Position numbers and translations under genes: made by a program
Notes under the pieces: model-generated
Databases searched by the model: none
What the model was told of the DNA's origin: nothing
Seen by the model: the letters and a program-made list of their open reading frames with translations, nothing else
Source: Bacteroidales bacterium
GTDB taxonomy: Bacteria > Bacteroidota > Bacteroidia > Bacteroidales > JAFGHD01
Reading direction: 5' to 3'
DNA: 63,643 nucleotides
Assembly: GCA_016927695.1 (NCBI GenBank)
Contig: JAFGME010000037.1
Location: 1-63,643, forward strand
Shown here: positions 5,422-50,000 of the stretch, in pieces
How the letters are laid out: the number at the start of each line of letters is the position of its first letter
Numbering within the stretch: the first letter of the stretch is position 1

Positions 5422-7425
5422 ATGAACGCAATGCATTCATTCATATTTTTTTTCACTTTAATTTTTAGTGTTAATAATGCGATTGCACAATTTGACACAG
5501 TTGTATCTTTTCAAAAAATCTCTGAGACAAGCGGCAATTTTACCGGCCAGCTCAGCAATGAAGATCACTTTTCAAGAGTTGCCAGTATTGGTGATTTGGA
5601 TGATGATGGAATTCCGGACATTGCAGTGGGTGCATTCGCAGATGATGATGGAGGCATCGATAGAGGTGCTGTGTGGATTCTTTTTCTAAACAGCAATGGA
5701 ACCGTGAAGAATCATCAGAAAATCAGTTCCACGGAGGGAAATTTCACCGGAATTCTGGATGACCAGGATTTTTTTGGGAATTCAGTTGCTGGGATTGGCG
5801 ATCTTGACAATGATAATGTTGAAGATATTGCTATTGGAGCATCCTTCGATGATGATGGTGGTTACAACACAGGAGCAGTTTGGATATTATTTTTAAACTC
5901 CAACGGCACAGTAAAAAACTATCAGAAAATCAGCAACTTTGAAGGGTATTTCAACGGGTATCTTGATGTAAATGATTGGTTTGGCCTCTGGGTCTCAAAC
6001 ATAGGTGATTTTGATAACGATGGAGTTGCTGATATTGCTGTTGGTGCAACCGGGGATTCTGATGGCGGAGGTGAAAACACAGGCGCTCTGTGGATTCTGT
6101 TTCTGAATTCTAATGGAAGTGTAAAAAGCAGCCAAAAAATCAATAAGTATTTCGGAGGTTTTACAGGCAATCTTGACCCTGGTGACAGGTTCGGCAGAAG
6201 CTGTACCTGCTTGGGTGACCTTGATGGAGATAATATAAAGGATCTGGCGGTTGCTGCCCACTTTGATGATGACGGGGGAACTGACAGAGGAGCAGTCTGG
6301 GTGCTTTTCATGAATCCTGATGGAACAGTAAAAAGTCATCAAAAGATAAGCAATACTCAGGGAAACTTCTACGGAGTATTGGATGATAATGACCAGTTTG
6401 GAATCTGTTCCACCCTGTTGGGCGATATTGATGGAGATGGAGTTGTTGATGTTATGGTCAGCAATCAGTTTGACGACGATGGTGGTTATAACCGAGGGGC
6501 TGCCTGGTGCCTGTTCTTAAACACGAACGGCACAGTAAAGGGATTTCAGAAAATAAGCGATACAGAGGGTAATTTTAATGCCAACCTTGAAAATGAAGAT
6601 TGTTTTGGTGCAACCTCAAAACTGATCGGAGATATAAATAACGATAACAAACTTGAAATAGCTATTGCTGCAGCTTATGATGATGATGGCGGCAGCAACA
6701 AAGGTGGTGTATATATCGTTTCGATCGAATCATTCTTTTCTCCCAATATCACGGTCGATGTAAAAGTATACCTTGAGGGACCTTATAATGGAACGATTAT
6801 GATGCCTGTGTTAAACTTTCTCGGATTTCTTCCTCTTAGCCATCCTTATAATACTCCTCCCTGGAACTACAACGGGACCGAGAGCGTTGCGTCCATACCT
6901 TCCTATAATATTGTGGACTGGATACTGCTTGAGATCAGGGAATCGACGGGAAGTGCTGTCACGGCTACTACCGATTCCATTCTGTTCAGAAGGGCTGGAT
7001 TCCTTACTTCACAAGGTCAAATTCGCGATATTGATGGAACAGGTCTCATTTCATCCGGTCAGGAAGCAGCAGGCAACCTGTATGCAGTGGTTCACCACAG
7101 AAACCACCTTGCTGTTATGTCGGCCTTTCCAATGAATGGATACAACGGTATTTATACATATGATTTTTCTTCCGGTGTCACCCAGGCTTTAGGGAACTCA
7201 AGCGCTCATAAAAATCTGGGCGGAGGTGTTTATGGTATGTTCGGCGGTGATGGCGATGGAGATGGACAAACGCAAAACCCGGATAAAATAGAAGTCTGGA
7301 ACATTCAATCCGGATTGGAAGGATATTTGGGTGGCGACTTCGACATGGACGGGCAGGTAAAGAACCAGGATAAGATCGAAGTGTGGCAGATGAATGTGGG
7401 GAGGGGATCACAGATCGTTCAGTGA
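5422..7425 (+). CDS. Secreted FG-GAP/integrin-alpha-like beta-propeller protein with C-terminal EGP-HRNHL-dockerin-like module
   Basis: Signal peptide; repeated GDLDxDGxxDIAVGA..DDDGG..GAVWILFLNSNGTVK..QKIS units; C-terminal LEGPY...HRNHL...GDGDGDGQ...GDFDMDGQV. Confidence 0.85.
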   Translation: MNAMHSFIFFFTLIFSVNNAIAQFDTVVSFQKISETSGNFTGQLSNEDHFSRVASIGDLDDDGIPDIAVGAFADDDGGIDRGAVWILFLNSNGTVKNHQKISSTEGNFTGILDDQDFFGNSVAGIGDLDNDNVEDIAIGASFDDDGGYNTGAVWILFLNSNGTVKNYQKISNFEGYFNGYLDVNDWFGLWVSNIGDFDNDGVADIAVGATGDSDGGGENTGALWILFLNSNGSVKSSQKINKYFGGFTGNLDPGDRFGRSCTCLGDLDGDNIKDLAVAAHFDDDGGTDRGAVWVLFMNPDGTVKSHQKISNTQGNFYGVLDDNDQFGICSTLLGDIDGDGVVDVMVSNQFDDDGGYNRGAAWCLFLNTNGTVKGFQKISDTEGNFNANLENEDCFGATSKLIGDINNDNKLEIAIAAAYDDDGGSNKGGVYIVSIESFFSPNITVDVKVYLEGPYNGTIMMPVLNFLGFLPLSHPYNTPPWNYNGTESVASIPSYNIVDWILLEIRESTGSAVTATTDSILFRRAGFLTSQGQIRDIDGTGLISSGQEAAGNLYAVVHHRNHLAVMSAFPMNGYNGIYTYDFSSGVTQALGNSSAHKNLGGGVYGMFGGDGDGDGQTQNPDKIEVWNIQSGLEGYLGGDFDMDGQVKNQDKIEVWQMNVGRGSQIVQ

Positions 7426-7486
7426 GGGTTCAACGTGTACTCAGAGCGCTGAGCAGTGATAATATCACCCCATATTGACCCACCCA

Positions 7487-7570
7487 TTACCGGAATCTGA
7501 AACATATTTTAGTACAACCCGTAACAGGGCTCCATGTACTTCCAGTCCATTCAATTTTTGTTGTGGCCAT
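7487..7570 (-). pseudogene. Truncated phage Gp37/Gp68-family (DUF5131) gene
   Basis: MATTKIEWTGSTWSPVTGCTKIC... matches the family N-terminus (TKIEWT..TWNPVTGCTKIS), then stops after 27 aa. Confidence 0.7.
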
Positions 7571-7632
7571 GATTAATTATTATTGTGAAATTTATCCTCC
7601 TCCCATTTTTTGGGATTATACTGCATTTATTA

Positions 7633-7704: not shown

Positions 7705-7766
7705 ATACTCATGTGTCGTCGCAGGCCTGATAAAACAATCATTCAGGCTTTGCTGCGAAAAATCAA

Positions 7767-8722: not shown

Positions 8723-11359
8723 CTAATTATCCCGGAGGCAACGGACACTTGTACCAGTTAGCTTATTGTAGTTGCCCACGCTCATACCGCCGGAGCCAAA
8801 GGACAGGCCACGACCCCAGGAAGTGCCTGAAAAGTACTCTGTAGAAGACCACCAGTAGCCGTAGTAGCCAATTAAGTAGAAGGCGCCACTGTGGTGACGG
8901 TAGCCGCCTGGAAGACCTGAAAATCCGTAATCGTCTGTGCCATAGTTTCCATAATTTGAATCTTCTTCCCATCGCGGGTGCTCGCTTGTATTGCAACCAA
9001 CGCCAAGAGGTGAATTGACCTGTCTGCACGATTTAAGCTTGTTCCCGTTGGGCCAACCTGTTCCGCCAAGATAATCGGTTAATGCTGTCCATTCATTATC
9101 AGCCGGCACATGCCAGCCCGACGGGCAAAGACCGTTGGTGTCGACTGTCGCATACCAGTTGTATAAAGGGCCGTATTTGTCTTTCCAGTTTATATCATTG
9201 TCGTACCAAACGTAAGCTCCGGTAGTCAGGCTTGACCATGCACTTGCATCTGTTACATTGGGAATGGGCGTGCCGTTTTTATAAGTCGTTGTTTTCAGGT
9301 TTTCCTTCAACCAGCATTGTGTGCCGATAAGTACGGTGTTGTATATATTGTCGTCAATATCAGTTATGGTTGGCATGCCGGGGCAGGGCTCGCCTGATGC
9401 GCCGCCGGAGGTTACGGTAATGTAGTTGGTCTTTATTTTCGTGTCGGAACCGTAGGTGTTGGCAACTGTGAGTTGCACGGTGTAGCTGCCTGCATTTTGG
9501 TATGTGTGCGCCGGGTTCTGCTGTGTGCTGGTATCGCCATCGCCAAAGTTCCACTGCCAACTTGTGGCGTTGTTGGTGGACTGGTCGGTGAAGTAAACGG
9601 TAAGGGGTACGGCGCCGGAGGTTGGGGTACCGGAGAAGTTTGATGCAGGGGGACCTTCATCTATGATGCAACGGACACTAAAGCCATTGCGCTTATTGTA
9701 GTTGTACGCACTCACATCACCATCGCACCAGAAGAGGTTTCGGTACCAGGCGCTAATAGACGAGTACTCCGTAGAAGACCACCAGGTGCCGTAGTAGCCA
9801 ATGGTGTCGAAATTGCCATAGTTGTCGCGCTCGCTGCCCGGAAGACCAGAAAATCCGTAATTGTCTGTGCCATAGTTACCATAAAATGGATCTTCTTCCC
9901 ATCGCGGATGCTCGCTTGTATTGCAACCGCCGCCAAGAGGTGAATTGACCTGCCTGCACGATTTAAGCTTGTTCCCATTGGGTTCACCTGTTCCCCCAAT
10001 ATGATCAGTCAGCGCTGTCCATTCATTATGAGTCGGCACATGCCAGCCCGACGGGCAAAGTCCGTTGGGATCGACTGTCGCATACCAGTTGTATAAAGCG
10101 CCGTATTTGTCTTTCCAGATAATATTATTGTCATACCACACATAAGCTCCTGTAGTCAGGTTTGACCAGTTATAACCATTGGTAACGTTCGGTATGGAAG
10201 CGCCGTTTTTATAAGTTGTAGTCTTCAGGTTTTCCTTCATCCAGCATTGAGAGCCTATCAGAACGGTATTGTACACATTGCCGTCAATGTCTGTTACCGG
10301 ATCGCTACAGCTCCACCATTGTATCACAGCCACTGCTGTCGTATCAGTACCGATCAGCCCCCCGGAATCCATCACCTGCATCATTCCAATATAAACGCCA
10401 GGCTGATCGTACTGCCATGTGGCCGTTTTCGTCATACTCCATCCACTCTCCCAGATGCCGTCGCCGTCAAAATCCCACCGTACCCGCAATGCTTCCGGCG
10501 GATCCTCCGGATCGGTGCTCATCGAGCCGTCGAAGCTGAAAATGGTAGTCGTGTTACCTGTCTGGGGCGTTACCGTGAATTCCGCCACAGGAGGTGTGTT
10601 CAGCAGGTTCACCGGAACCTGGCTTGCCAGCCCCGCATTGGGATACCAGATGTCAATCTTGTCGTTGTTGTCCACGTATCCGTTCATCGTAAAGTCTCCT
10701 GCCAGGTAACCCGATAACCCTGCCTGCGGCTTCCAAACCTCCAGCTTATCGGTGTTGTTTACCGTGCAGTCGGCGTTGCCGTCGCCGCCTGCCATGACCC
10801 AGTAACCATTCACCTGTTTGTGCGCCATGGTTCCGCCGTATGCCTTGTCAGGAGCGTCAGTGAAATCGTAGGCGTATATGCCGTTGCTCAGCGTCAGTGG
10901 AAAATTCGACAGTAGGCCCAGATGGTTGCGGTGCCACACGACCACATAGAGATTCTGGGTGATATTGTGTCCGGTGAACTGGGGCGGGCTGACGCCGTCA
11001 AGTCCGGTGATGACGCCATCATAAAAGATGAAACAGGTCATCCGGTCAATCACCGTAGCGGGGGTTGCTGTTTCCGGCCCTCCCGGCGCTTCGCGCAACT
11101 CCACCAACACCCAGTCCACTACCTCGTTGTTCGGTATAGAAACCACCTGATCCGGGCCGTTGTGATACCAGGGCGCCTGGTTGTAAGGATGGTTCAAAGG
11201 CAGGTAACCATTGTTGTTCAGGAAGGTGTTCATATCATCACCAGTGAAAGGGCCTTCGAGATAGACCTTCAGGTCGAGGGTGATCTGGGCTGCAGCATGG
11301 AAGGGCAGCCATCCATTCATGCAAATAATGGCAAACGTAATGTAAATGAGCTTTTTCAT
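8723..11359 (-). CDS. Secreted protein: EGP-HRNHL-dockerin-like module, PKD, FISUMP, PKD, FISUMP; candidate DGR target
   Basis: Signal peptide; WDFDGDG and WNFGDG PKD motifs; two DIDGNxYxTVxIGxQCWxxENL...YGxLYNW...CPxGWHVP...WWSST...SVRC domains. Confidence 0.88.
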   Translation of the reverse strand: MKKLIYITFAIICMNGWLPFHAAAQITLDLKVYLEGPFTGDDMNTFLNNNGYLPLNHPYNQAPWYHNGPDQVVSIPNNEVVDWVLVELREAPGGPETATPATVIDRMTCFIFYDGVITGLDGVSPPQFTGHNITQNLYVVVWHRNHLGLLSNFPLTLSNGIYAYDFTDAPDKAYGGTMAHKQVNGYWVMAGGDGNADCTVNNTDKLEVWKPQAGLSGYLAGDFTMNGYVDNNDKIDIWYPNAGLASQVPVNLLNTPPVAEFTVTPQTGNTTTIFSFDGSMSTDPEDPPEALRVRWDFDGDGIWESGWSMTKTATWQYDQPGVYIGMMQVMDSGGLIGTDTTAVAVIQWWSCSDPVTDIDGNVYNTVLIGSQCWMKENLKTTTYKNGASIPNVTNGYNWSNLTTGAYVWYDNNIIWKDKYGALYNWYATVDPNGLCPSGWHVPTHNEWTALTDHIGGTGEPNGNKLKSCRQVNSPLGGGCNTSEHPRWEEDPFYGNYGTDNYGFSGLPGSERDNYGNFDTIGYYGTWWSSTEYSSISAWYRNLFWCDGDVSAYNYNKRNGFSVRCIIDEGPPASNFSGTPTSGAVPLTVYFTDQSTNNATSWQWNFGDGDTSTQQNPAHTYQNAGSYTVQLTVANTYGSDTKIKTNYITVTSGGASGEPCPGMPTITDIDDNIYNTVLIGTQCWLKENLKTTTYKNGTPIPNVTDASAWSSLTTGAYVWYDNDINWKDKYGPLYNWYATVDTNGLCPSGWHVPADNEWTALTDYLGGTGWPNGNKLKSCRQVNSPLGVGCNTSEHPRWEEDSNYGNYGTDDYGFSGLPGGYRHHSGAFYLIGYYGYWWSSTEYFSGTSWGRGLSFGSGGMSVGNYNKLTGTSVRCLRDN
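8738..10297 (-). repeat. Ungapped intragenic direct repeat (8738-9367 and 9668-10297, offset 930 nt)
   Basis: Hand alignment: about 25/154 aa differ in the N-terminal part versus 26/52 in the block before SVRC. Confidence 0.9.
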
Positions 11360-13223: not shown

Positions 13224-16200
13224 TCAGGGGGCCGTTGGTTCATACACACAGCGGACAGAAGTTCCCCATGCTTTCTCGCCAAAGTACAAACTGCTAAAAT
13301 CACCTGATAAGAATAAATGCCAGGCCTTATTACTGTCTTCCTGTGTACTGCTCCAGTAAGCTCCCTGGGATCCCCTGTATAAAAGCTGTCCGTTGCTGAT
13401 GTGCAGATAACCTGCTGAATGGAGCGTGAGCTCACTGGAGTACGCCTGAAAATGATTGTTCCATCCACCGTTAATATCAGCGTTAGTCCATTCAGTCTGG
13501 GTTGGGATCCTCCATCCGGAACCTAAAAGCGCTTTGCAGGGATCAGTGCCCGGCTGCCAGTTTGAATTTTCATTTATTGACATGATCCAGGGAGTATTCG
13601 GAGTGCGGATTGTACCATCATGCTTGTATCCCTGCCTGCGGTTAAACTGCCAGTACCAGCCGGCTGAAGCTTCAGAGTCATCTGTTGCAGAATTGGCCTG
13701 ATGATCGGCGCCAAGGTTTTGTGTGATCCAGCACAAGTCACTTCCGGTCAGGTTGGTCACCACTGTTCCGTAATTAATGGTTTTGTCAACTGGCGCCACA
13801 TCTCCTGCCGTATGAACCACCTGTAAGTCATTGCCGCAGCTCCACGACGCCTCAATGAGACAGCGAATACTGTAACCAAGGGATGTTGCTTGTTGCTGCA
13901 TTGTGCTGCTGTTATCGCTGAGATACAGTGCCCAGCTTGGCAAACCTGTCGAAGTGCTGCTCCAGTAATGACCGTTCGAACCCCTGGCCAGCAAAGTACC
14001 GGCGCTGCCCTGTATGTAACCTGCCGCATGAAGTTTCAGAACGCTGGAGTACGAATCATCGTAGTTGTTCCATCCCCCGTTGAGGTCAGCATTGCTCCAC
14101 TCCGTGCCTGTCGGTATTCTCCAACCTTCGCCGAAGAGTTTTGTACAGGGATCGTTTGCGGATTGCCAGTCAGTATAGTTGCTGCCCACAGGGTTCCAGT
14201 TACCGGGGATAAGGGTCGTACCATCATGTTTATAACCCTGTATTTTACCGAACTGCCAGTACCAGCCGGCTGAAGCTTCCGTTGCATCGGTGGCAGAAGC
14301 AGCCTGATGGTCGGCTCCCAGGTTTTGGGTGATCCAGCATTTGTTGCTTCCTGAAAGGTTTGTTTCCACTGTGCCATAAGTTACGGTCTTATTAACAGGT
14401 GAAACCTCTCCCGCGTAATGGACCACCTGGAAACTATCTCCGCAACTTACCGAAGTTGGAATATCCCTGACACACCTGACAGAATTGCCGTTTGCCTTTT
14501 CAATGTATGTCATCCCGCAGGCATAATTGTACATATGCAAGATTGAACCTAAACCTTCCAGAAGAGTGTTCGAATTGTCTGTCCAATAATAACCAATTGA
14601 TCCTCTGTCCATTAACCCGCCATTCCACATCCAAAGCTGCCCCGCGGCATGAAGTTTTAATGCGCTGGTGAAAGCCTGGCTATAATTGTTCCAACCGCCA
14701 TTTAAATCAGCGTTGTACCATTCTGAATAGGTGGGCATTCTCCATCCGGAACCGAGAAGTAATGCACATGGGTCATGGGAAGGCCACCAGTTTGCGTTTT
14801 CAATGATAGATGTAATCCAGATAGTGTTAGGGGTCCGGGTTAGCCCGTCATGCATGTAACCCTGTTTTCGGTTGAACTGCCAGTACCAGCCTGCCGATGC
14901 TTCAGTGTCATCTGTGGCAGAGGTGGCTTGTTGATCTGATCCCAGGTTCTGGGTTATCCAGCATCTGTTGGTTCCGGCCAGGTTGGTTGGTGAGGTCTGA
15001 TAATTTACGAGCTTGCTTACAGGGGCGACATCCCCTGCCGTGTGAACCACCTGAAGTTCATCGCCGCATTTCCAGGTTTCCGGGTTATCACGAACACAAC
15101 GAACCGAATAACCGTAATTTTTATTGCGGGCGTCGCGGGCAGCCTGGGCCAGGCTGAATCCCAGCGTCCTGTAAACTGCGCTGTCACCACTTTCCGTGGA
15201 TGACCACCAATAGCCGTTGCTTGCCATATAATTGAATGAACCGGAAAGGTAGTTTCTGCCACCGCCAGGCAGGGCTGTGAACCCGACAAGATCCGAAGAG
15301 CCCGCATTCGGATTTGTCCAATGCGTGAAACCGGTTTCCTTGAGCTTTCCACCGCCATCCACCCCGCGCCAGCCTGTGATGTCACAAGCTATTGTATTGT
15401 CAACAAACTGTTCGAGCATGCACCATTCGGCATCTGTTGGCACATGCCATCCGCCGTTTGGCGGACAAATACCCTGAACTCCCTGTGTGATAACATAATT
15501 CATGATTTCATTCCACTGGTAAAGACCACCGTAAACATCACAGTTTGCATCACTGTTGTTATAGCAATATTTCTCGATAATTCCATTGTCAGCTTGCTGC
15601 TGAACACCGTTAATCCTGGCACCAATGTTTAAATTCGCCGCCATCCAGCACTGTGTGCCGATTACGGTGGTATTATACACCTTTCCGTCTCTTGGATCTA
15701 CTATTGTATCCCCGCAAGACCATACATAATCCTTTGTTATGAAATCCCACACCGGCCCTGCCGTTGAATCCCCGTACACATCGTAAGCCACTACTTTCCA
15801 GGAATAAGCGGTTGAATAATTCAGGGTTCCCGGATAATAAAATGTGTCGGGGTGGTTGGCAATCATAAGCTGCGGATTGCCTGAATCCCCAAAATATATT
15901 GAGTAGTGAAGCGCATCACCGTTCGGATCGGAACAGGTCCAGGACAATGTAGGGTCTATTCCGATAGCTGTTGACCCGTTAAAAGGAACCGGGTTTTCCG
16001 GTGATGAAGGTGGCAGGTTGTTGAGCGGTTCATTTGCAATACAGCGAACCGAGTAACCATAAGCTTTATTCCTGTTATCGCGGCACGACTGGATCAGGAT
16101 ATTGCCCAATGTCCGGTACACAGCATTTCCGCCCGTTTCGGTGGAGCACCACCAGTAGCCGTTGGTGGACATATAATTGAACGAACCGTTGGAATAATTG

Positions 16201-17435
16201 CGGTCACCTCCCGGAAGAGCTGTAAATCCGCTTAAATTGGTGGCGCCTGTGTTTGGAGAGGCCCAGTGGATTGTACCTGTTTCCTTCATATTACCTCCTG
16301 CATCAAGTCCCCGCCATCCTGTCTGATCCCAAACCGGATCAGGATATCCGTACTGACTGTCCGCTTCACCTTCCAACTCTTTCCATTCCTCATCCGTCGG
16401 CACATGCCATCCGCTGTTTGGCAGACAAATCCCCTGCGCACCGGGCGCGCTTACATACTGCATCATTTCGTTCCACTGGTATAGGCCGCCATAGATATCA
16501 CAATTGGCTTCGCTGTTGTTGTAGCAATACTTTTCGATGGTTCCGTTGTCTGATTGGGGCTGAACACCGTCAATCCTGGTTCCCGCGTTCAGGTTTTCGC
16601 CCATCCAGCATCGGTTGCCGATTTCAACGGTGGTATAGATATGCCCGTCGCGAACGTCAGCAATATCTTTTCCGCAAACCCAGACGCCGGGCAGTTGGGC
16701 GCTCCTGCCGCTATTCACCAGCCAGTGATCGATCTTATCCACATTGTCAACCTGACCATTCATGGTGAAATCCCCCGCAAAATAACCTGAAAAACCCGCC
16801 TGTTGCTTCCAGACATCATTTTTATCCCCGTTGTTCACCTGGCCGTCGCCATTGCCATCCCCGGAAACCATGCCCCAGATTCCGGGCACAAGTTCTTTAT
16901 GGGCAGTGGCGCCTCCAAAAGCCTGTAAAACCCCTGCAGTAAAATTATAACCGTACTGTCCGCCAGTGCCGGTCAACTCCACAGCAGACATTACTGCCAG
17001 ATGGTTCCGGTGATAAACCACAACAAACAGTTTCTGTGAAATGGTAAGACCAAATTGCATCGGAGAAATGCCGTCGATTCCGGTTATGGTTCCGTTTTTC
17101 AGCACGAAGCCTGCCTGACGACCCACAACACTTTCAACATAAGCAGTGGAGGCATCCCCCGCCGTTTCACGGAGTTCAACTAAAATCCAGTCAACGACCT
17201 CGCTGTTTGGTATGGCAATGATGCTTTCAGGGCCGGAATAATTCCATGGGGCTGCATTGTAAGGCTGGGTAAGAGGGATTAAGCCGAAGCTATTCAGTGA
17301 AGTTTCCATCTCTGCGCCCCCGAAAGGTCCCTCTAAAATTACCTTCAGGTCAACGCTTATCTGGGCAAAGGGTTGCAGCGTCAATAAAAGCGCTGTGATC
17401 AACAAGAAAAATCTTTTCGATGGTATTGCTTTCAT
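13224..17435 (-). CDS. Large secreted protein: EGP-HRNHL-dockerin-like module, FISUMP, FN3-like, FISUMP, three divergent FISUMP-like repeats
   Basis: Signal peptide; DxRDG..Y.T..IG..CWM..NLN..YGGLYQW domains; three VVHxAGxVxPV...CWITQNLG...SAGWYWQF...LHxAG...SVRC repeats. Confidence 0.88.
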   Translation of the reverse strand: MKAIPSKRFFLLITALLLTLQPFAQISVDLKVILEGPFGGAEMETSLNSFGLIPLTQPYNAAPWNYSGPESIIAIPNSEVVDWILVELRETAGDASTAYVESVVGRQAGFVLKNGTITGIDGISPMQFGLTISQKLFVVVYHRNHLAVMSAVELTGTGGQYGYNFTAGVLQAFGGATAHKELVPGIWGMVSGDGNGDGQVNNGDKNDVWKQQAGFSGYFAGDFTMNGQVDNVDKIDHWLVNSGRSAQLPGVWVCGKDIADVRDGHIYTTVEIGNRCWMGENLNAGTRIDGVQPQSDNGTIEKYCYNNSEANCDIYGGLYQWNEMMQYVSAPGAQGICLPNSGWHVPTDEEWKELEGEADSQYGYPDPVWDQTGWRGLDAGGNMKETGTIHWASPNTGATNLSGFTALPGGDRNYSNGSFNYMSTNGYWWCSTETGGNAVYRTLGNILIQSCRDNRNKAYGYSVRCIANEPLNNLPPSSPENPVPFNGSTAIGIDPTLSWTCSDPNGDALHYSIYFGDSGNPQLMIANHPDTFYYPGTLNYSTAYSWKVVAYDVYGDSTAGPVWDFITKDYVWSCGDTIVDPRDGKVYNTTVIGTQCWMAANLNIGARINGVQQQADNGIIEKYCYNNSDANCDVYGGLYQWNEIMNYVITQGVQGICPPNGGWHVPTDAEWCMLEQFVDNTIACDITGWRGVDGGGKLKETGFTHWTNPNAGSSDLVGFTALPGGGRNYLSGSFNYMASNGYWWSSTESGDSAVYRTLGFSLAQAARDARNKNYGYSVRCVRDNPETWKCGDELQVVHTAGDVAPVSKLVNYQTSPTNLAGTNRCWITQNLGSDQQATSATDDTEASAGWYWQFNRKQGYMHDGLTRTPNTIWITSIIENANWWPSHDPCALLLGSGWRMPTYSEWYNADLNGGWNNYSQAFTSALKLHAAGQLWMWNGGLMDRGSIGYYWTDNSNTLLEGLGSILHMYNYACGMTYIEKANGNSVRCVRDIPTSVSCGDSFQVVHYAGEVSPVNKTVTYGTVETNLSGSNKCWITQNLGADHQAASATDATEASAGWYWQFGKIQGYKHDGTTLIPGNWNPVGSNYTDWQSANDPCTKLFGEGWRIPTGTEWSNADLNGGWNNYDDSYSSVLKLHAAGYIQGSAGTLLARGSNGHYWSSTSTGLPSWALYLSDNSSTMQQQATSLGYSIRCLIEASWSCGNDLQVVHTAGDVAPVDKTINYGTVVTNLTGSDLCWITQNLGADHQANSATDDSEASAGWYWQFNRRQGYKHDGTIRTPNTPWIMSINENSNWQPGTDPCKALLGSGWRIPTQTEWTNADINGGWNNHFQAYSSELTLHSAGYLHISNGQLLYRGSQGAYWSSTQEDSNKAWHLFLSGDFSSLYFGEKAWGTSVRCVYEPTAP

Positions 17436-17623: not shown

Positions 17624-19147
17624 TTACGTTGCTGATTTCATTTCTTTCTCAAACTTCGCCAACACTTTTTTCACCTCCGCGGGCGTCGGCCTTTTCATCC
17701 CTTCCTGTTGTTCGAGCAACTGTTTCTGGGCTGTTTTGCCGAGATTCTCCATGATCAGATCCTTCACCTCTTTTTTCTTTCCGTAGAGTACGGTGGCAAT
17801 CTCGGCCGGTTCAAATCCTTTGAGAAGTTTTTTCAGTCTGGTTCCGGGAAGCTTTGTGACGCTGCCGAAACTGAATTTGGATGCCGGCGCTTTCACGCTG
17901 GTTTTCTTTGCCGGAGGCGCTTTCTTAACCGGCTTTTCCACTTCGGGAGAAGCCGGTTGCAAATGACATTCATCGAGCCGGATCATAAAATCCGACAGCA
18001 CATTCATATAATTAATGAAGGCTTCATAAGGGGAAGGGTAAGGATTGAAATACCTGTGCACATCCCCGTCGGAGAACCATTTGGTGCACATGTAGTAAAA
18101 ATGGTCGCTTGCCTGCAGGTAATCCCAGTCGCGGAGGATGGCCGGATCGTGGCATGCTTTCACTTTGCCGGCCAGCGAATACAGTTTGGTAAACGCTTCA
18201 TTCTGCATTTCATTTCCCAGCCATGCTGTAAGGTCTCTCTCCTCATCGGCCCAGGATATGGGGAAAGGGACAAAGATTTCAGAGGCAGCTTTATGCTTCC
18301 TGACGATTTCCGAAGGGGTCCGGAATTTAAATCCTGTGGAGGTCAGAATTTTGGCGGGCAGGTCTTCCATAAACTCAAAAATTCCGGATTCCTCCCACTG
18401 ATGTTCACCAAAAGTTTCATAATCCACAAAGAGGTTCACGATTTCCTGTTCCTTTTCGATCTGGCTGATCCAGCGTGCATACTTATCGGCGGTCAGCGGC
18501 CATTCGCTCCATCCCTGGTCGGAGAACCGGAAGGCGATGTCATCACTCAGCCTGAAGTTTTTCAGCATCAGTTTCAGGTCGGGGTTGCCGTTATGGTGAT
18601 ACAGGAAATTGGGGCTTTTCCATCCCAGCACATGCTTGGCGCCTTCTGTCAGGATGGTTTTATAACCCATATCATACACCCTCTGCCCGATAGCATCCGA
18701 ATAGATCAGTTCAGTGTTCCGGAAAGTGACCGGTTTTTGCCCGAACAGTCTTTCAATGGCCTGGCTGTGATTCCCGACCTGGCTGACAAATTCTGCAGTA
18801 TCATTGAGTGATGCAAGGGAATGGGCATAGGTTTCGGTAAGGAATTCGACATTGCCGGTAGCGGCAAGGGCTTTAAATGAATTAAGCACTTCGGGGGCAT
18901 AGCGTTCGAACTGCTCCAGGGCGGGGCCTGAGATAGAATAACTTATTTTGAATGACTTACCATGTTTTTTAATCAGCTTAAGCATCAGCTTGTTGGCAGG
19001 AAGGTAGCATTTCCGTGCCACTCTCTGCATGATGGATTTGTTCAGGTAGTCGTCATAATAGTGATGGTCGGAACCCATGTCGAAAAACCTGTAAACCCTC
19101 AGTCTGAATGGTTGATGCACCTGAAAATACAAGCAAATTGATTTCAT
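17624..19147 (-). CDS. GH57 alpha-amylase/glucanotransferase with K/P/A-rich linker and FliG-C-like tail
   Basis: YFQVHQPFRL, ETYAHSLA, FRNTELIYS, DYETFGEHQW, SWADEERD, SDHFYYMCTKW. Confidence 0.92.
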   Translation of the reverse strand: MKSICLYFQVHQPFRLRVYRFFDMGSDHHYYDDYLNKSIMQRVARKCYLPANKLMLKLIKKHGKSFKISYSISGPALEQFERYAPEVLNSFKALAATGNVEFLTETYAHSLASLNDTAEFVSQVGNHSQAIERLFGQKPVTFRNTELIYSDAIGQRVYDMGYKTILTEGAKHVLGWKSPNFLYHHNGNPDLKLMLKNFRLSDDIAFRFSDQGWSEWPLTADKYARWISQIEKEQEIVNLFVDYETFGEHQWEESGIFEFMEDLPAKILTSTGFKFRTPSEIVRKHKAASEIFVPFPISWADEERDLTAWLGNEMQNEAFTKLYSLAGKVKACHDPAILRDWDYLQASDHFYYMCTKWFSDGDVHRYFNPYPSPYEAFINYMNVLSDFMIRLDECHLQPASPEVEKPVKKAPPAKKTSVKAPASKFSFGSVTKLPGTRLKKLLKGFEPAEIATVLYGKKKEVKDLIMENLGKTAQKQLLEQQEGMKRPTPAEVKKVLAKFEKEMKSAT

Positions 19148-19159
19148 AAACCTTTTACA

Positions 19160-20452
19160 TTACTTAACATTCGATACTGTATCTTTATATTCTTTCATTA
19201 TTTTAACTGCCGCGTTTTCCCATTTCAGGTTGTCCACTTCTTCCCGGCCGTATTTGATAAACATATCCGACAAAGCCGAATAATGGAGCAGGCCGTGGAT
19301 GGCATCCGCCATGCCGTGGGTGTCCCAGAAATCAACCTTAATGGCATGCCTGAGCACTTCTGCCACCCCCGATTGTTTGGAAACGATTACGGGAACGTTG
19401 ATCCTCATTGCCTCCAGAGGAACGAGGCCAAAGGGTTCGGAAACGGAAGGCATCACAAAAACATCGCTCATGGCAAACATCCTGTCCACATCGTCGCCTT
19501 TCAGGAACCCGGTAAAATGGAACCTGTCAGACATTTTCAGCCGGGCCACCTGTCGGACGATCTTATACATCATATCGCCGGAACCGGCCATCACAAAACG
19601 GACGTTTCTGTCTTTGGAGAGTACTAACCTTGCTGCTTCCACAAAATATTCGGGGCCTTTCTGAAAGGTGATCCTGCCAAGGAATGTCACAATCTTTTCA
19701 CTGACATTCTTTTTTATCGAAAGCATTTCCATTTTTTCAACCGGTTCGATGGCATTGTGTATGGTAACCACCTTTTCGGGTGCGATGCCATACCTGTTGA
19801 TCACGGTGTTGCGGGTGAGGTTGCTGACGGCAATGATTTTGTCGGCTCCTTCGAACCCGGCTTTTTCAATTTCATAAATCTGTGAGTTGACATTTTCGCC
19901 GGTACGGTCAAATTCGGTAGCATGAATATGCATGATCAGGGGTTTCCCGCTGACGGCTTTGGCTGCCAGCCCGGCATAGTAAGTGTGCCAGTCGTGGGCA
20001 TGGATGAGGTCAAAATCGTACCTGGAGGCAATTTCACCTGCCACAAGTGCAAAACGTGCCACTTCTTCCAGGAGGTCGGGGCCGTATTTTCCGCTGAAAT
20101 CAAACCTCTGGCTGTAAATCGATTTCTTTCTTTCTTCCCTTTCTTTTTTGGTTTCCCGGATCACTTTTTCATACTGTTCGGGATCGAGATATGGGGCCAG
20201 GTTTGAATTCACTTCAATATAAGTCAGGTTTTTCACCAGTTCCTTTATCTCCGATTTCCTGAAATGAACTTCCACATCGCTGGCATTGATAAGGCGTACA
20301 GCTCTCTCATCCTCGTCGCCATAAGCTTTGGGCACAGCAAACAACACTTTGGCCCCCTGTTTCAGGAGGCCTTTGGTCATGCCGTAACAAGCGGTGCCTA
20401 ATCCTCCGGTGATATGGGGAGGAAATTCCCAGCCAAACATCAAAACTTTCAT
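19160..20452 (-). CDS. GT4 glycosyltransferase (glycogen/alpha-glucan synthesis)
   Basis: MKVLMFGWEFPPHITGGLGTAC, HAHDW, HATEFDR, GRITFQKGPEYF, PSVSEPFGLVPLEA; start moved to ATG 20452. Confidence 0.92.
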   Translation of the reverse strand: MKVLMFGWEFPPHITGGLGTACYGMTKGLLKQGAKVLFAVPKAYGDEDERAVRLINASDVEVHFRKSEIKELVKNLTYIEVNSNLAPYLDPEQYEKVIRETKKEREERKKSIYSQRFDFSGKYGPDLLEEVARFALVAGEIASRYDFDLIHAHDWHTYYAGLAAKAVSGKPLIMHIHATEFDRTGENVNSQIYEIEKAGFEGADKIIAVSNLTRNTVINRYGIAPEKVVTIHNAIEPVEKMEMLSIKKNVSEKIVTFLGRITFQKGPEYFVEAARLVLSKDRNVRFVMAGSGDMMYKIVRQVARLKMSDRFHFTGFLKGDDVDRMFAMSDVFVMPSVSEPFGLVPLEAMRINVPVIVSKQSGVAEVLRHAIKVDFWDTHGMADAIHGLLHYSALSDMFIKYGREEVDNLKWENAAVKIMKEYKDTVSNVK

Positions 20453-20465
20453 ATCCTCAAGGGCG

Positions 20466-27184: not shown

Positions 27185-27186
27185 TC

Positions 27187-38333: not shown

Positions 38334-40844
38334 ATGATTCTTTTCAAATCCCCATATTTCCCGGTCTTCTTCATGATCATCTTTTCTCTCCTTTTTTGGC
38401 AAAAATCTACGGCCCAGAATAATGATAAAAGGTTAATGAACGCTTCAAGGACAACAGCGCCCCCAAAAATCGATGGTGAACTGAACGATGAGGCCTGGGC
38501 AACAGCCGAAGCCGCTACCGGTTTTGTACAATACCAGCCCTACAACGGAAAAGCAGCCTCCCTTCCGACCGAAGTAAAAATTGTATACGATGATTATGCC
38601 TTTTATGTGGGCGCTCTTCTTTATGACCCGCAACCCGACAGCATTTATACCGAACTCAGTGTAAGAGACGAGATCAACATCGCAGATTATTTCGGGGTGT
38701 ACTTTGATCCTTTCAACGATTTCATCACTGCATACGGATTTATAGTCACTGCGGCAGGTGTACAGGTTGACCTGAAATCGGTTGAGGGTTCCGGAGAGGA
38801 TGAAAGCTGGAATGCTGTTTGGAAAAGCGAAATTAAAATCACCGACACGGGGTGGGTGGCTGAGCTTGAGATACCCCATTCCGCTTTACGATTCCCAAAA
38901 ACCGGCAGGGAGCAGGTATGGGGTCTTCAGTTTTTCAGGCAGATTATGCGCTACCGTGAAACAGACACATGGAACTTTATTGACCGCAATGCAGACGGAT
39001 TGAACAACCAGGCCGGCCGGCTCACCGGGATTCACGATTTAGATCCCCCCCTGAGATTGTCCGTTGTGCCTTATCTTTCAGGATATGTGGAAAAAAACCC
39101 GGAACTTGACCACTGGAGCGCCTTTAGCAATTATGGCCTTGACTTGAAGTACGGCATCAGCGAAAGCTTTACATTAGATATGACCCTTGTGCCCGACTTC
39201 GGCCAGGTACAGTCCGATGATATCATATATAACCTCTCGCCTTTTGAAGTGTATTATGATGAAAAACGACCCTTTTTCATGGAGGGCACCGAGTTATTTG
39301 ACCGGGGAAACGTGTTCTACAGCCGGCGCATCGGCGCTACTCCCTCGGGGTACGATGCAACTGAAGACAGCCTGCTTCCCAACGAAATCATCATTGACAA
39401 TCCTTTATCCTCCCAATTGATCAACGCCACCAAAATTTCGGGAAAGACAAAAAAAGGACTGGGTATCGGGTTGTTCAACGCTATGACTTCCAATACTTTT
39501 GCAGAAATACAGGACACCCTAACGGGAGCATCAAGGAAAGTCACCACAGAACCTTTCTCCAATTACAATATGATAGTCATTGACCGGTCACTCAGGAATA
39601 ATTCATTTGTCAGCGCTTATAATACCAATGTTTACAAACCGGAAAATGAATACTCAGCCAATGTTTCGGGAACAGAATTCAAAATCACCGATAAAAAAAA
39701 CACCTATTCTGTTTTCGGAATAGGCTCTGTTAGTCAGCATTACGACAAGGGTGAAAAACCGGGGTTCGGGCATAAGTACTTATTGTCGGCCGGAAAAATA
39801 AGCGGCAGGTTTATCTATGAGCTGGAGCACAGTGCGGCTTCCGACACTTACGATCCGAACGAAATGGGTTATCTTTCGAAAAACAACGAATTTGAAAACC
39901 TGTTGTATCTCGCTTATAACCAATATGAACCACATGGTAAACTGCTGGAATGGACCAATGAACTGGAAATCTCCTGGGATTTTCTTTATCATCCCCGGAA
40001 GTTTACCTGGTTCAGCATAGATTATGACACCCGGGCCACCAATAAAAACCATCTTACGGTCTGGTTCAACAGTGAGCTGAAACCGGTAAACTCTTACGAT
40101 TATTACGAACCCAGGGTGTGGGGTTATTACTACACTGCTCCCCCCTCCTTATCTATGATGGCAGGCTATTCACCCGATTACAGAAAAAAATTCCTCATCG
40201 ACCTCCGTGCCGGCTACTTTTACTCAGGGCATTACCGTGAAGAGAAGTACTCCTTCAACATTAGTCCGAGGTTCAGAGCCGGCGACAAGCTCATGATCAT
40301 CCACCGCTTCGATTACAGTTACAACAGGGATGATATGGGGTATGTAACAGACACCACCGGAAATGACGGCGCACAGGCAATCATCTTTGGTAGAAGGAAC
40401 CTCGAGTTGTTCACCAACACCCTTACGGCAGAATACAAATTCACCCCCAGATCAGCTCTTTCACTCAGGATCAGGCATTACTGGATCACGGGAAAGTATC
40501 TTGAATTCTACGACCTGTTAACTGATGGATATCTGAAATCCAACCAATACCGGCAGGGAGACGACTTCAGCTACAATGCATTTAACATCGATCTGTTTTA
40601 TCAATGGAATTTTGCGCCCGGGAGCGAAATCAATCTTGTATGGAAAAACTCAATACATCATCTGGATGAAACCCCGGTATTTCCTGACGGTTTTTCCTCA
40701 AAAGCAGACATTCCTGCAAACTTTATTGACAATTTCCGGAATACAATCAACACCCCTTCCGCCAACAGCTTTTCAGTCAAAATATTGTATTATCTTGACT
40801 ACATGTACCTTAAGAAACTTCACAAAAAACCTTCAGAATCCTGA
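38334..40844 (+). CDS. CBM9-like plus DUF5916 outer-membrane protein
   Basis: PKIDGELNDEAW, WNAVWKS, GLDLKYGI, PDFGQVQSD, EKRPFFMEG, FYSRRIG. Confidence 0.85.
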   Translation: MILFKSPYFPVFFMIIFSLLFWQKSTAQNNDKRLMNASRTTAPPKIDGELNDEAWATAEAATGFVQYQPYNGKAASLPTEVKIVYDDYAFYVGALLYDPQPDSIYTELSVRDEINIADYFGVYFDPFNDFITAYGFIVTAAGVQVDLKSVEGSGEDESWNAVWKSEIKITDTGWVAELEIPHSALRFPKTGREQVWGLQFFRQIMRYRETDTWNFIDRNADGLNNQAGRLTGIHDLDPPLRLSVVPYLSGYVEKNPELDHWSAFSNYGLDLKYGISESFTLDMTLVPDFGQVQSDDIIYNLSPFEVYYDEKRPFFMEGTELFDRGNVFYSRRIGATPSGYDATEDSLLPNEIIIDNPLSSQLINATKISGKTKKGLGIGLFNAMTSNTFAEIQDTLTGASRKVTTEPFSNYNMIVIDRSLRNNSFVSAYNTNVYKPENEYSANVSGTEFKITDKKNTYSVFGIGSVSQHYDKGEKPGFGHKYLLSAGKISGRFIYELEHSAASDTYDPNEMGYLSKNNEFENLLYLAYNQYEPHGKLLEWTNELEISWDFLYHPRKFTWFSIDYDTRATNKNHLTVWFNSELKPVNSYDYYEPRVWGYYYTAPPSLSMMAGYSPDYRKKFLIDLRAGYFYSGHYREEKYSFNISPRFRAGDKLMIIHRFDYSYNRDDMGYVTDTTGNDGAQAIIFGRRNLELFTNTLTAEYKFTPRSALSLRIRHYWITGKYLEFYDLLTDGYLKSNQYRQGDDFSYNAFNIDLFYQWNFAPGSEINLVWKNSIHHLDETPVFPDGFSSKADIPANFIDNFRNTINTPSANSFSVKILYYLDYMYLKKLHKKPSES

Positions 40845-44385: not shown

Positions 44386-45519
44386 ATGAAAATTTTGATG
44401 CTTATCACCACCGTCACTTTGACCTTCAGCCTCCGGCTGCCGGATGTTTCGGGGCAAAACCTGCAATATCCGGTGGATGTGTTGTACTATGAACCCGGGC
44501 AAACTTATTTCGTATCAAACTGGAATCAGGAAGGCGCCGGAAAGATATTCCGGGCAGACGGGGCCGGAAACATCACCGGCATTTTTTACACTTATCTCAA
44601 GTATCCCGGCGGTATGGCAATAGTCGGGGATGTGCTTTATGTTACCAATAATTACGACATCATCAACTACAACAAACCCTCCTACCTTGTGGGGATCGAC
44701 CTCAACTCCGGCCAGCAGGTACTGAACAGGCTCATCGATGCCGACCAGTGCTACTTAGACCTGATGGATACCGACGGCACAAATCTGTATTTCGGAAACA
44801 GCGTTAAGGATGTAATTTATAAATACAACATACAGGAAAATGATCTTACCGAACTTGTCCAGGCCAGCCAGCCCTTTGGACTTTGCTACGATTACATTCA
44901 CGGCCGCGTGGTTTATTTTGAAAGCGATTTTGTAACCTCAGTGATCAAATCGGTGAAGCCCGACGGAACAGACAAAAAAACGCTGTTGAACAATTTCAGC
45001 GGCTATCTGGAGGGGATCATCATGGACCACAACGGAAGGTTCTACTATTCGAGCTGGGGCGACGATTACGAATGGGGCAACGAGAGAGTCTATTCCAACA
45101 ATTCCACCTTCAGCAACCAGGTGATTGTTTCCACCGGCCACAACCGCCCTTTCGGAATGTGCATTATGCCGGAAAAAAAACTTTACGTCTGCAACTGGGG
45201 AGGCAATTCCTTCAGCTTCCCTGACATTTCAGAGTACCTGCCTGTAAATGAGAGTTCTCCTGCCCCGGAAAACTCACTCCTCCTCTCTCCCAATCCCTGC
45301 GAAGGGAAAAGCAGTGCGGTTTTTTCAGGGATGGCAGGCGTTGCAGGTGAACTGACTCTGACCGACCTCAGGGGAAGGGTTTTGTTCAATACGAGTGTCA
45401 ATATTCTGAGGGATGATTTCAGCGTTGATCTTGACCTGGCCTCACTCTCCGGAGGAATGTATTTCGTTACATTTCACGGTGTAAGTGTCCGGTTATCTCA
45501 AAAACTCATCATACAATAA
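44386..45519 (+). CDS. T9SS-secreted beta-propeller-like protein
   Basis: Signal peptide; NHL/YVTN-like repeats; CTD LSPNP...TDLRGR...LSGGMYFV...QKLIIQ. Confidence 0.8.
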   Translation: MKILMLITTVTLTFSLRLPDVSGQNLQYPVDVLYYEPGQTYFVSNWNQEGAGKIFRADGAGNITGIFYTYLKYPGGMAIVGDVLYVTNNYDIINYNKPSYLVGIDLNSGQQVLNRLIDADQCYLDLMDTDGTNLYFGNSVKDVIYKYNIQENDLTELVQASQPFGLCYDYIHGRVVYFESDFVTSVIKSVKPDGTDKKTLLNNFSGYLEGIIMDHNGRFYYSSWGDDYEWGNERVYSNNSTFSNQVIVSTGHNRPFGMCIMPEKKLYVCNWGGNSFSFPDISEYLPVNESSPAPENSLLLSPNPCEGKSSAVFSGMAGVAGELTLTDLRGRVLFNTSVNILRDDFSVDLDLASLSGGMYFVTFHGVSVRLSQKLIIQ

Positions 45520-46742: not shown

Positions 46743-47044
46743 TTTCTATATTTTAAAATTATTCGATTACACTCAATGTTTTTTCCTGTAATACAAAGCT
46801 TTACCTCTAATCGTCCCCCACATCTTATGTGTCACTTCTGCAACAAAAATAACAACTTATTCTACCGATGCGCAAGTGACTAATGAAATATTTTCTAACC
46901 CTGCAGATTATTATTTTGCCTTCTGACTATGAAAAATTTATCCTTCAAGTTGGTTCCATCGAATCTTTTAATTTTTTATTCTTCCATTATTCTTTTTGTT
47001 TTCTTGTGTTTCCGGCAAATAGAATGTGATTTGTTCGAAAGTAA

Positions 47045-50000
47045 CTATTGCGGAACCTGTGACCCCTTTCCTGCATCCGGCGCCCAAAATTCAATCCTGT
47101 CGGTGTTGTCCACATTGCCATTCATATTGAAATCGCCCTGCAGGTAGCCTGAATTTCCAGACTGTGGCGCCCAAACTTCGGGTATGTCACCTGAAGTTAC
47201 CTTTCCGTCGCAGTTTCCGTCACCGGCAACCATACCCCAGATATCAGGGGCAAGCTGCTTATGTGCTACATTCCCCCCAAAAACCCTGGAGGCATCTGTC
47301 GAAAAATCATAGCTGAACCCAGACCCTGCTTGGGTTAATGGAAAAGCTGATATTACCGGCAGGTGATTTCTATGCCAGACTGTTGCAAACAGTTTATAGG
47401 AAAAACTTGCTGAAAATTTAAGCGGGCTTGTGCCATCCAATGACACAATCGAACCGTTCTGAGTAAGGAACCCCGCCTTTCTTCCAATCATCGTGCTATT
47501 GACGGCATCCTCAGCGGAAGGAGCATCCCGCAATTCTACAAGCACCCAGTCAATACAATGGTCGCCGGGAACCGCCGTAACGGCTTCTTTACCATTGTAA
47601 TTCCAAGGGCTGGCGCCGTAGGGCTGCATGAAAGGAATACATCCTGCCAGATTTAAATCATTTCGCATATTATGCGTAACAGGATCAAACCCGCCTTCAA
47701 GAAAAATGGTCAGATCCACTAGATACTCCTTAGATGCTGAATCGGGAAGAGTCCCTTCCGGATTGGAATATGACATACATGGACCCGTAAATGGCATCCC
47801 GTCAAGGCTTATATTGTTAAAAGTAACTCTTTTGCCCTCATCAATGGCCATATTCTGGCCAATGAAGCGAATGCGCACAATGAAATCAGGGTTGTTGTTG
47901 ACGTCAGATATTCCGGTAAAGTCAATATCATATAACAGATATGCGTCTGCAAGTGCAAAAGTATTGTATGGCAGGCCTGCGGAAGTCCACTCCGGTGCAC
48001 CGGAAACAGTTGAATAATCAATTTTCAGGCTATCGGCCGCCCCTTCATCCATAGCAGCAAAACGAAACACCAAATCCCGGAACCCTGTGCATGGAAGATG
48101 AAAAAAGAGGGTGTTTTCACCCCCGTCTCCTGTGAATGGCTGCCTGATTTGCACTGCACGCATATCTGAACTGGCAAACGGTATATTGTTATTGCCTTCA
48201 GGTCTGTAATTGGTAATGGTTGGGGCGTTTCGCCTTTCCATGGATGCCTTCCTCCAATTTGGATGGCCGTTAAAGAAGGGGTATCCAATGAGGGCTGAAT
48301 GAAATGCGAGAACAGATCCCGGAATCAATTCAAATGTCGGATCTAAGCATTTTAGAGGTGTGTCATTAGGAATGCCTGAACCAAAGAACCAGAAATGAAC
48401 CAACCGGCTTGTTGGTACTTCAGTGAATACTGCCGTAAGATTCAAACTCCCGGTTGGAGTAATCTCTAAAAGGGGAGAGTTAGTTTCAGATAAACCAATC
48501 CAGTGGCTGAAACCGTAGCCCGGTGCAGGAATGGCCTCCAGTTCAACAGGGATGCCCTCAAAATAAACGCCGGTCCATGGATAAGCTGTTTCGGGTACAC
48601 CGGGTGTTTTCGGAGTAATATGAATTGTGTTGATGCGGATGTGCCCGAAAAGAGCGTCATTTACATCCAGGGTAATAAACACATTGCTGTCAATATCAAA
48701 ATGATTCCGGATGTGCTGGCGCTGAATGGCAGGCCGCTGGTTACCAAAAGAAATCAAGGCATTTACCTGTGCTGCAGTAGCCGCATTTTTATTCCAGCGA
48801 TGGAAGTGCTCCGGAAGGTTGCTTTCCAGCGCCTGAAAGGCGGATGTTACAACCTCTTCAAAACGGGCAGGTACAAAAGTTGTATTCAAATGATCGGCAA
48901 AACGGTTGATGAAAAGGTTTTTGAAGCCCTCGTTTGTAAGCAGGCTTCGTAAAAATGCCGTTTTGTCGGGATGGCCGAAATTCCAGGGGGTAAATGTGCC
49001 TCCGCCCTCCGGATGAATTGCGTTCAGCAAATGATCGCCATCTACCCAATAAATCCTACCTGCCAGATCAAAATCCCAAACCATGGTTCTCCATTTTCCA
49101 TCGCCAAAGAATGTGCCTGACGGTTCCCTTGCACGCCAAAGTTTAAAGTGTTTTGAGCCATACCAGTCAACGTTATTGAGATAAATGAACATGACATTAT
49201 AATCAATATAGCTTTGCAGATCAAGCATTGTTTTCACCTGGCTGAAATTCTGCTCAATACTCATGTCGTTTTCCACAACAAAATTGTACATAAACCTGTA
49301 TAACAACAAATCTTCCTGTGTGCCAACCTCAATATGATTACTGGTACCCTGACCCCATACACCATTAAGAATTATTACATTCTCCGGATCAATGTTAAAG
49401 TTGTAGGCAATGTGATATTCATCCTGGTTATCGCGGATATACATCAGCCCCCAATACTCTCCATTGATATAATGTATTACCGGCCGGCTTCGTTGCACTC
49501 CTTCATAAACCGGTTCCATTAATCTGTGCGAGATGTGATCGTAGAGATGTGCCTGAACATTCCCCCCGGACCTTAAGGTGAATCTCTTAAACTGTTCCGA
49601 ACACAGATTTGGATTAGAACTGTTTTTCTCAGAAAAAAACGGATAGTTCACAATATTTTCATTATCATAAATATCCCTGGCATATAAACGCATACTTTTT
49701 AGCGGGCACCATCTTGAAGCTCCTCCATAAATACGTAAGCCCAAACCCTGGTTTATTGCAGGGAGGGAGTAGTTTTCTTCAAAAAATTCAATATGAGCGG
49801 GACATTCCCATTCTGATCCGCTTCTTAAATAGTTACCCTGTGGTCTGTAAGGGCTATTTGGGTGATTCACTCTCCACGCATCACAATCAATCCCGGCAAC
49901 ATAGATTCCGTTTTCATAATCAAATAAATCGCTTTCCTGCATATTGATGGACAATATTGGCAAACTAAAGTCATTGCCCATGGAATCATTGACAAAATAT

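Follow-up and report, generated by a model that had tools for sequence, protein, structure and literature searches.

The docking of dockerins on cohesins is already known, as is the XDoc arrangement, in which an X-module stands next to a dockerin; the XDoc dyad of CipA fastens the scaffoldin of Clostridium thermocellum to the cell, where its partner cohesin is part of a cell-anchored protein. In type I dockerins, which bind cohesins in a calcium-dependent manner, each of the two calcium loops is followed by an alpha-helix of ~12-15 residues, and these helices form the cohesin-binding face. Cohesin-dockerin pairs that are not cellulosomal were reportedly found by Peer and colleagues in 2009 across bacteria and archaea, on proteins unrelated to cellulose breakdown. 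Here we describe a module of ~225 residues, consisting of a beta-sandwich of ~165 residues and a dockerin-like tail of ~60 residues, four copies of which are encoded in a 63,643-nucleotide stretch of DNA from a Bacteroidales bacterium (contig JAFGME010000037.1 of assembly GCA_016927695.1), referred to in its full length as the window. In our assessment the chances are evenly balanced that this module acts as an XDoc-like docking unit by which diverse secreted proteins are attached to cohesin scaffolds for display on the cell surface. The basis for this reading is the anatomy of the module, its fold similarity, the conservation of its calcium loops, its separation from the sorting domains of the type IX secretion system (T9SS), and the folds, fusions, synteny and co-occurrence of cohesins, from which we infer binding and a surface location.

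As modelled, the module resembles the XDoc of CipA (2b59, 3kcp, 5g5d) in having an Ig-like beta-sandwich directly before, and packed on, a dockerin-like unit with two calcium loops, and both are usually C-terminal and also present on multi-cohesin scaffoldins. It differs in that a profile of the module has no detectable homology to the X-module or type II dockerin among PDB sequences, in the truncated helices of its dockerin-like part and in a larger beta-sandwich, with an irregular N-terminal loop region of ~50 residues. Whereas C. thermocellum has type I dockerins on cargo and type II on the scaffoldin, here a single type of module is carried by both, and the host is a diderm with a T9SS rather than a Gram-positive with SLH anchors. 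With type I dockerins (PF00404) the module shares two 12-residue loops of aspartate and asparagine (D/N) ligands, ~29 residues apart, and some relatives score above the Pfam cut-off, whereas the window copies fail this model and have DKxDVW-x-P in place of the post-loop helices. Like the T9SS sorting domains, the module is C-terminal on many large secreted proteins of Bacteroidota and hugely expanded per genome; unlike them, it is three times longer, contains a predicted dockerin and is also found at N-terminal and internal positions. T9SS sorting domains are cut off by PorU, and their cargo becomes attached to anionic LPS. From the non-cellulosomal cohesin-dockerin pairs it is set apart by ~100 carriers per genome, by the location of the dockerin-like part within a fixed module and by cohesins that are tied to T9SS domains. 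Within the reach of our searches, the novelty lies in a fixed module family of 225 residues, in the scale on which it is used, in its presence on cargo as well as scaffoldins and in its link with cohesins that have T9SS domains.

Fold and calcium loops of the module

The structure of the module was predicted with AlphaFold2 from an alignment of 36 copies, with copy 1 of the window (Table 1) as the first row, giving a model with a predicted local distance difference test score (pLDDT) of 87 and a predicted template modelling score (pTM) of 0.87. Residues 1-165 form the beta-sandwich, for the most part at pLDDT >90, with the first ~50 residues a confidently predicted but irregular loop region, and residues 166-225 form the tail, which is modelled with lower confidence. 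When compared by VIA-align with 48,161 representative chains, the model has as its two best matches the X-module/type II dockerin structures of CipA, 3kcp_A (Z 7.9, 140 residues aligned) and 5g5d_B (Z 7.5, 145 of 156 residues aligned, spanning model residues 1-225). The third-best match reaches only Z 4.7, and it is this gap, together with the coverage of both parts of the module, that gives the CipA match its weight. The best full-length matches in Foldseek are the same CipA entries, led by 2b59_B (probability 0.91, E 0.045), with the others weaker.

The tail has two EF-hand-like loops of 12 residues with D or N at positions 1, 3, 5, 9 and 12, and both are kept across the 101 full-length copies present in the genome from which the window comes. 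Loop 1 has D168 in 97 copies, N/D170 in 90, D/N172 in 99 and D179 in all 101; loop 2 has D197 in 101, D/N201 in 100, N/D205 in 89 and D208 in 100. The consensus continues after each loop with DKxDVW and a proline, the latter conserved 7 residues past loop position 12. A preliminary description, made from the letters of the window, had recognized this tail as dockerin-like, and the retention of both loops bears this out, as does a relative with a Pfam domain at the aligned place. This relative, a shorter protein from a different family (locus L033 of genome G022), matches the module over positions 96-208 (E 5.7e-17) and has there a canonical Dockerin_1 domain (28.8 bits, cut-off 22.9). Two database relatives, P0007 and P0010, are also above the Dockerin_1 cut-off, and the domain is found in 15-19% of the members of related Atlas clusters. 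As canonical Dockerin_1 domains occupy the aligned place in relatives, the tail of the module appears to be a derived dockerin.

Within the beta-sandwich, residues W39, Y41, E45, D57, W58, R64, H117, R118, N119 and H120 are near-invariant, and this conservation may reflect a ligand-binding role of the sandwich. A pocket in the beta-sandwich might, together with the calcium loops, bind a non-protein ligand, either a surface glycan such as lipopolysaccharide or capsule or an environmental polysaccharide, which we consider improbable as the function of the module. The near-invariant polar and aromatic residues do exceed the needs of a passive spacer, and the weaker fold matches (Z 3-4), with transthyretin-like and carboxypeptidase-regulatory-like domains, include putative Bacteroides adhesin domains. 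The beta-sandwich half (positions 4-150) is also found without a dockerin in a beta-helix protein of another genome (G032, locus L032) that has a T9SS domain at its end. The module, however, matches no carbohydrate-binding family, the tail is better conserved than the beta-sandwich (61% versus 49% mean pairwise identity), and binding of a glycan would leave the link to cohesins unexplained. As the beta-sandwich occurs in a dockerin-less form in G032, each half of the module has a history of its own.

Size, conservation and distribution of the module family

A profile built from the four window copies scores each of them at E 1e-118 to 1e-123, far past chance, and gives 113 matches in the genome to which the window belongs (G000; 4.36 Mb in 317 contigs, 92.9% complete). 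An hmmsearch of the stop-to-stop open reading frames (ORFs) of this genome identified 101 full-length copies and 112 module ORFs, ~3% of the 3,084 genes in a crude ORF-based set, and the window greatly understates the size of the family. By a crude rule, 77 of the 82 module ORFs with complete 5′-ends have a signal-peptide-like start, and the starts of the other five are similar by eye. The 101 paralogues have a mean identity of 52%, with ~50 positions conserved at ≥90%, which argues for an old family under constraint rather than a recent burst of duplication.

This conservation also bears on the possibility that the module is just a structural element, a common spacer or stalk that domain shuffling has distributed among proteins with no shared partner. 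Beta-sandwich spacers are common in the surface proteins of Bacteroidota, and two to five tandem copies of the module are present in some database proteins. The number of conserved positions at such a mean identity, the almost invariably terminal placement of the module, the single copy per protein in this genome and the strict exclusivity with T9SS domains documented below nevertheless fit a shared interaction, not a spacer, and we regard a mere stalk as very improbable. The tandem copies occur in relatives P0006, P0007, P0008 and P0010, the last with five at residues 32-1199, and contrast with the one-copy rule in this genome.

Searches of 1.84 billion representative proteins gave 14,073 matches at E ≤1e-3, 10,078 at E ≤1e-10 and 3,046 at E ≤1e-30, counted as clusters at 50% identity. 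The named relatives are almost all proteins of uncultured Bacteroidales or Bacteroidetes, from metagenome-assembled genomes (MAGs), and are annotated as 'hypothetical' or by their cargo; the best 80 loci from a named genome collection are from MAGs without exception. A module match is present in 47 of 401 reference genomes sampled from the order and in 55 of 401 sampled from the phylum, other classes included, and large expansions have occurred in several families (first-look candidate counts of 44-81). Two relatives, P0007 and P0090, are encoded on a 38-kb contig labelled 'Candidatus Thermoplasmatota archaeon', which was probably mis-binned; the other named relatives are all from Bacteroidota.

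The whole module matches no model in Pfam or NCBIfam, and comparison with PDB sequences gave nothing usable; short, repeat-driven matches to adiponectin and PBP4 were dismissed. No description of the module was found in the literature searched, with subscription journals and supplementary files outside that search. The remark in the preliminary description that no described function or partner was known to its author is consistent with these searches, which found neither a family model nor a paper on the module.

Placement in proteins and relation to T9SS sorting domains

Most copies of the module are at the end of a protein. In the window's own genome, 95 of the 101 end ≤30 residues from the end of the ORF, with 81 ending ≤15 residues from it, whereas three are N-terminal (two of the window copies and one on contig C149) and three internal (contigs C204, C163 and C7). 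A Fib_succ_major domain (FISUMP) lies downstream of the module in five of these six non-terminal copies, and in the exception, on C204, the module is followed by 206 residues without a Pfam match. The 237 database relatives have a similar distribution, with the module ≤30 residues from the C-terminus in 198, N-terminal in 21 and internal in 18, and the 39 that are not C-terminal include 30 proteins with FISUMP and 3 with a type A T9SS domain. The module and a type A domain share a protein only rarely, as in P0045 (module at residues 73-293, T9SS domain at 786-861) and P0229 (551-770 and 1266-1341), and wherever positions were placed, the FISUMP or T9SS domain is downstream of the module. The module is thus last unless a domain that itself usually takes the end of the protein, FISUMP or a T9SS domain, follows it. 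Its earlier characterization as position-independent is correct in that N-terminal and internal copies exist but, with so strong a C-terminal bias, was overstated. Classical dockerins are also mostly C-terminal, so terminal bias alone cannot decide between docking and sorting.

FISUMP ends within ~3 residues of the stop codon in about half of the 18 FISUMP ORFs in the genome. Most FISUMP proteins have an ordinary signal peptide and no T9SS domain, so that their own export route is also unexplained. The possibility that an N-terminal module substitutes for a lipid anchor in these proteins was considered and rejected, as ordinary signal peptides prevail among FISUMP proteins that lack the module, with a lipobox in only one.

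The genome encodes the SprA translocon and has at least 150 type A T9SS domains and 7 matches to the type B model (TIGR04131); a profile made from 40 of its type A matches finds 189 ORFs. None of the 112 module ORFs overlaps with the 150 type A matches, the 7 type B matches or the 189 ORFs found by the profile, and the module itself matches none of the models for T9SS sorting domains (TIGR04183/PF18962; TIGR04131). The mutual exclusivity of module and T9SS domain that the preliminary description had raised, having seen no such domain on the four window proteins, therefore holds throughout this genome; the four proteins have zero Por_Secre_tail matches.

Such exclusivity invites the explanation that the module is a new C-terminal domain for sorting and anchoring in export across the outer membrane, by the T9SS or by another route, that replaces a type A or B domain independently of cohesins, with the calcium loops serving to stabilize its structure. 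The terminal bias fits this explanation, and proteins of families that elsewhere use T9SS domains, namely C25 gingipain-type peptidases, MAM, LamG and beta-helix proteins, here have the module. Cohesins that are ~50% identical end in either a T9SS domain or the module, most of the relatives in which the module is not terminal have FISUMP or a T9SS domain instead, and one module-rich family (f48) has no detected cohesin. Set against this, an obligate position at the extreme C-terminus is contradicted by 6 of the 101 copies and 39 of the 237 relatives, and an N-terminal module is found on FISUMP proteins in which no further export signal is recognized. At 225 residues the module is also ~3 times the length of known T9SS domains, it matches none of their models, and sorting would leave the cohesin fusions, synteny and co-occurrence described below unexplained. 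A search of the 243 genes that flank module genes for a dedicated export partner of the PorP/SprF type found none; the families that are enriched and commonest there are instead TPR proteins (16, of a genome family of ~65) and LytTR response regulators (6, of ~33), which points to regulation, not sorting. On balance we consider a sorting domain rather unlikely, although it is the main alternative to docking.

Cohesins and their association with the module

The preliminary description had suggested a common scaffold, and a search with Pfam and with a profile built from the genome itself found five cohesin proteins, some of them fused to the module. The first, encoded on contig C57, has 1,155 residues and combines the module with a PKD domain and four cohesins. 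The others are encoded on contig C134 (locus L047, 1-12001), in a run of genes for a TonB-barrel-like protein (TonB-dependent-receptor-like, 816 aa), proteins of 670 and ~240 residues, each with a cohesin and a T9SS domain, and a protein of ~385 residues with a cohesin and the module. Also encoded in the run are a 1,023-residue protein, with a CarboxypepD_reg domain and the genome's only canonical Dockerin_1 domain, and a 673-residue cohesin protein with neither T9SS domain nor module. The Dockerin_1 protein, which does not carry the module, was the sole match in a genome-wide scan with that model. The C134 cluster looks like a small scaffoldin locus.

The assignment to the cohesin family is based on PF00963 matches on both contigs and on the nine-stranded jelly-roll fold; a cohesin model (pLDDT 93.8) has only cohesins as its top Foldseek matches (E 8e-10, TM 0.8). 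The cohesins that have a T9SS domain and the one borne by a module protein are ~50% identical, and module-bearing cohesin proteins have from one to four cohesins. A gene for a cohesin protein with a T9SS domain, followed by one for a protein with cohesin(s) and the module, is present not only here but also in G311 (1,816 and 795 residues) and G222 (1,470 and 755 residues), so that this pair is found in three families. The same pair occurs at loci L058, L116 and L123 of the named collection, possibly overlapping with genomes already counted, and across 79 loci of this collection a cohesin is also present in 9 of the 95 module ORFs. Among the 401 genomes of the order, which are related and so not independent, a Pfam cohesin is present in 37 of the 47 with the module and in 69 of the 354 without it.

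The possibility that the modules on scaffoldins have a second specificity, as type II dockerins do, was rejected, as the scaffoldin-borne modules are not outliers among the copies. Co-folding of the module with the cohesin of a cohesin and T9SS-domain protein and two calcium ions gave scores of 0.00, 0.44 and 0.25 (mark 0.32) and weighs neither way.

A proposed model for cohesin-docked display

In the docking model, the module would bind cohesin domains in the presence of calcium. Those cohesin proteins that have a T9SS domain at their end should be exported by the T9SS and fixed to the outer membrane, where they would act as anchors. Cohesin proteins that end in the module, with one to four cohesins, would be adaptors that multiply the docking sites; together they would give a diderm cell a display system that resembles a cellulosome but is not cellulolytic. 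N-terminal and internal positions of the module are tolerated, as expected of a binding unit.

Several results weigh against docking. Structural Z values below 8, such as those of the CipA matches, may, as the tool cautions, reflect a common arrangement. The window copies fail the Dockerin_1 model (PF00404), with only one of the four matching (E 0.21), a profile of the tail has no significant match to PDB dockerins (E 0.5-2; 2b59_B, E 0.52), and hhalign of the tail with the genome's one canonical dockerin returned a probability of 1%. The post-loop helices of the model have only 3 residues each (177-179 and 206-208), in a tail block with pLDDT 51-85, and the helices that normally contact the cohesin are shortened by the conserved proline to approximately one turn. 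The conservation of R64, W58, R118 and the HRNH motif in the beta-sandwich is left unexplained by docking, as is the crossing of the outer membrane by ~100 proteins without a T9SS domain. Ten of the 47 module-positive genomes have no Pfam cohesin and, when five of these ten were searched with the profile of the genome's own cohesins, cohesins were found in G124 only, with none in G048, G184, G191 or G084. Two of these, G048 and G184, represent family f48, in which 15-17 first-look module candidates per genome (87-89% complete) are accompanied by no cohesin that Pfam or the profile could detect.

The crossing of the outer membrane, which neither docking nor sorting accounts for by itself, could be accommodated if module proteins without an export signal docked in the periplasm on the cohesin and T9SS-domain carriers and crossed as their passengers through the SprA translocon, with the module-ended multi-cohesin adaptors branching the assembly on the surface. 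We give this variant only a small chance, although such a mechanism could conceivably reconcile docking with sorting; ~3% of the genes would then owe both the export and the display of their products to a single docking unit.

If the module does dock on cohesins, cohesin-dockerin assembly would extend well beyond the cellulolytic Firmicutes and be a major organizer of cell surfaces in a branch of the Bacteroidota that is widespread and uncultured. Proteases, lectin-like proteins, kinases and adhesins would come under its control, and an unannotated domain with >14,000 clusters at 50% identity would acquire a function. Being compact and dependent on calcium, such a docking pair from a Gram-negative host could also serve in surface display. 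For the T9SS, docking would raise the question of how ~100 proteins per genome come to the surface when they have no known sorting domain.

The module copies of the window and neighbouring genes

The four module copies, their tails and the proteins that carry them are listed in Table 1. Both the positions of the copies and their placement within the proteins are as first described, now with strands added, one copy being encoded on the forward strand and three on the reverse strand, and the motif first given for the module is essentially correct. Copies 2-4 are 42-50% identical to copy 1, and the four-copy alignment has 65 invariant columns and a mean column identity of 67%. Diverse cargo, as first reported, is associated with the module: its ~100 carriers in this genome, predicted to be Sec-exported, range from proteases and lectin-like FISUMP proteins to an FG-GAP propeller and a CotH kinase. 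The preliminary description also referred to T9SS domains on other proteins of the window, of which one was identified, at 44386-45519; this protein is above the cut-off for TIGR04183 and under that for PF18962 (E 3.5e-5, 24.5 bits, cut-off 27).

Table 1. Positions of module copies, their dockerin-like tails, the proteins that carry them and a T9SS-domain protein in the window
Feature	Position	Strand	Remarks
Cargo gene 1	5329-7425	+	Signal peptide, FG-GAP repeats (E 5.6e-25, 6 stretches), module
Module copy 1	6748-7422	+	C-terminal on FG-GAP propeller protein; profile E 7e-120
Dockerin-like tail, copy 1	7225-7422	+	
Cargo gene 2	47045-50926	-	Signal peptide, lamin-tail domain (LTD, E 5.3e-13), CotH (E 2.4e-33), InlB-B-like repeat, module
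Module copy 2	47048-47725	-	C-terminal on LTD-CotH protein; profile E 1.8e-118
Tail, copy 2	47048-47245	-	
Cargo gene 3	8723-11359	-	Signal peptide, module, PKD, FISUMP, PKD, FISUMP; last FISUMP stops 2 residues short of the stop codon
Module copy 3	10613-11287	-	Right behind the signal peptide of a PKD/FISUMP protein; profile E 1.7e-121
Tail, copy 3	10613-10807	-	
Cargo gene 4	13224-17435	-	Signal peptide, module, two FISUMP domains, Lcl_C-like repeats
Module copy 4	16689-17363	-	Right behind the signal peptide of a FISUMP/Lcl_C protein; profile E 3.3e-123
Tail, copy 4	16689-16883	-	
T9SS type A contrast protein, without module	44386-45519	+	TIGR04183 at 45286-45516, 27.4 bits, above cut-off

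The TPR and LytTR neighbours of module genes, seen for example at loci L048 and L049, may reflect dedicated regulation of surface proteins. Within the window, a TPR-PAS histidine kinase and a PAS/GAF hybrid kinase are encoded at 29303-31837 and 31843-35097, respectively. Beside the second FISUMP gene, at 17624-22412 on the reverse strand, there is a glycogen-type cluster that encodes a GH57 enzyme, a GT4/GT5 starch-synthase-like transferase and an amylo-alpha-1,6-glucosidase (GDE_N and GDE_C), and at 38334-40844 on the forward strand is a gene for a large protein in which a CBM9-like domain is fused to DUF5916 (E 1e-195).

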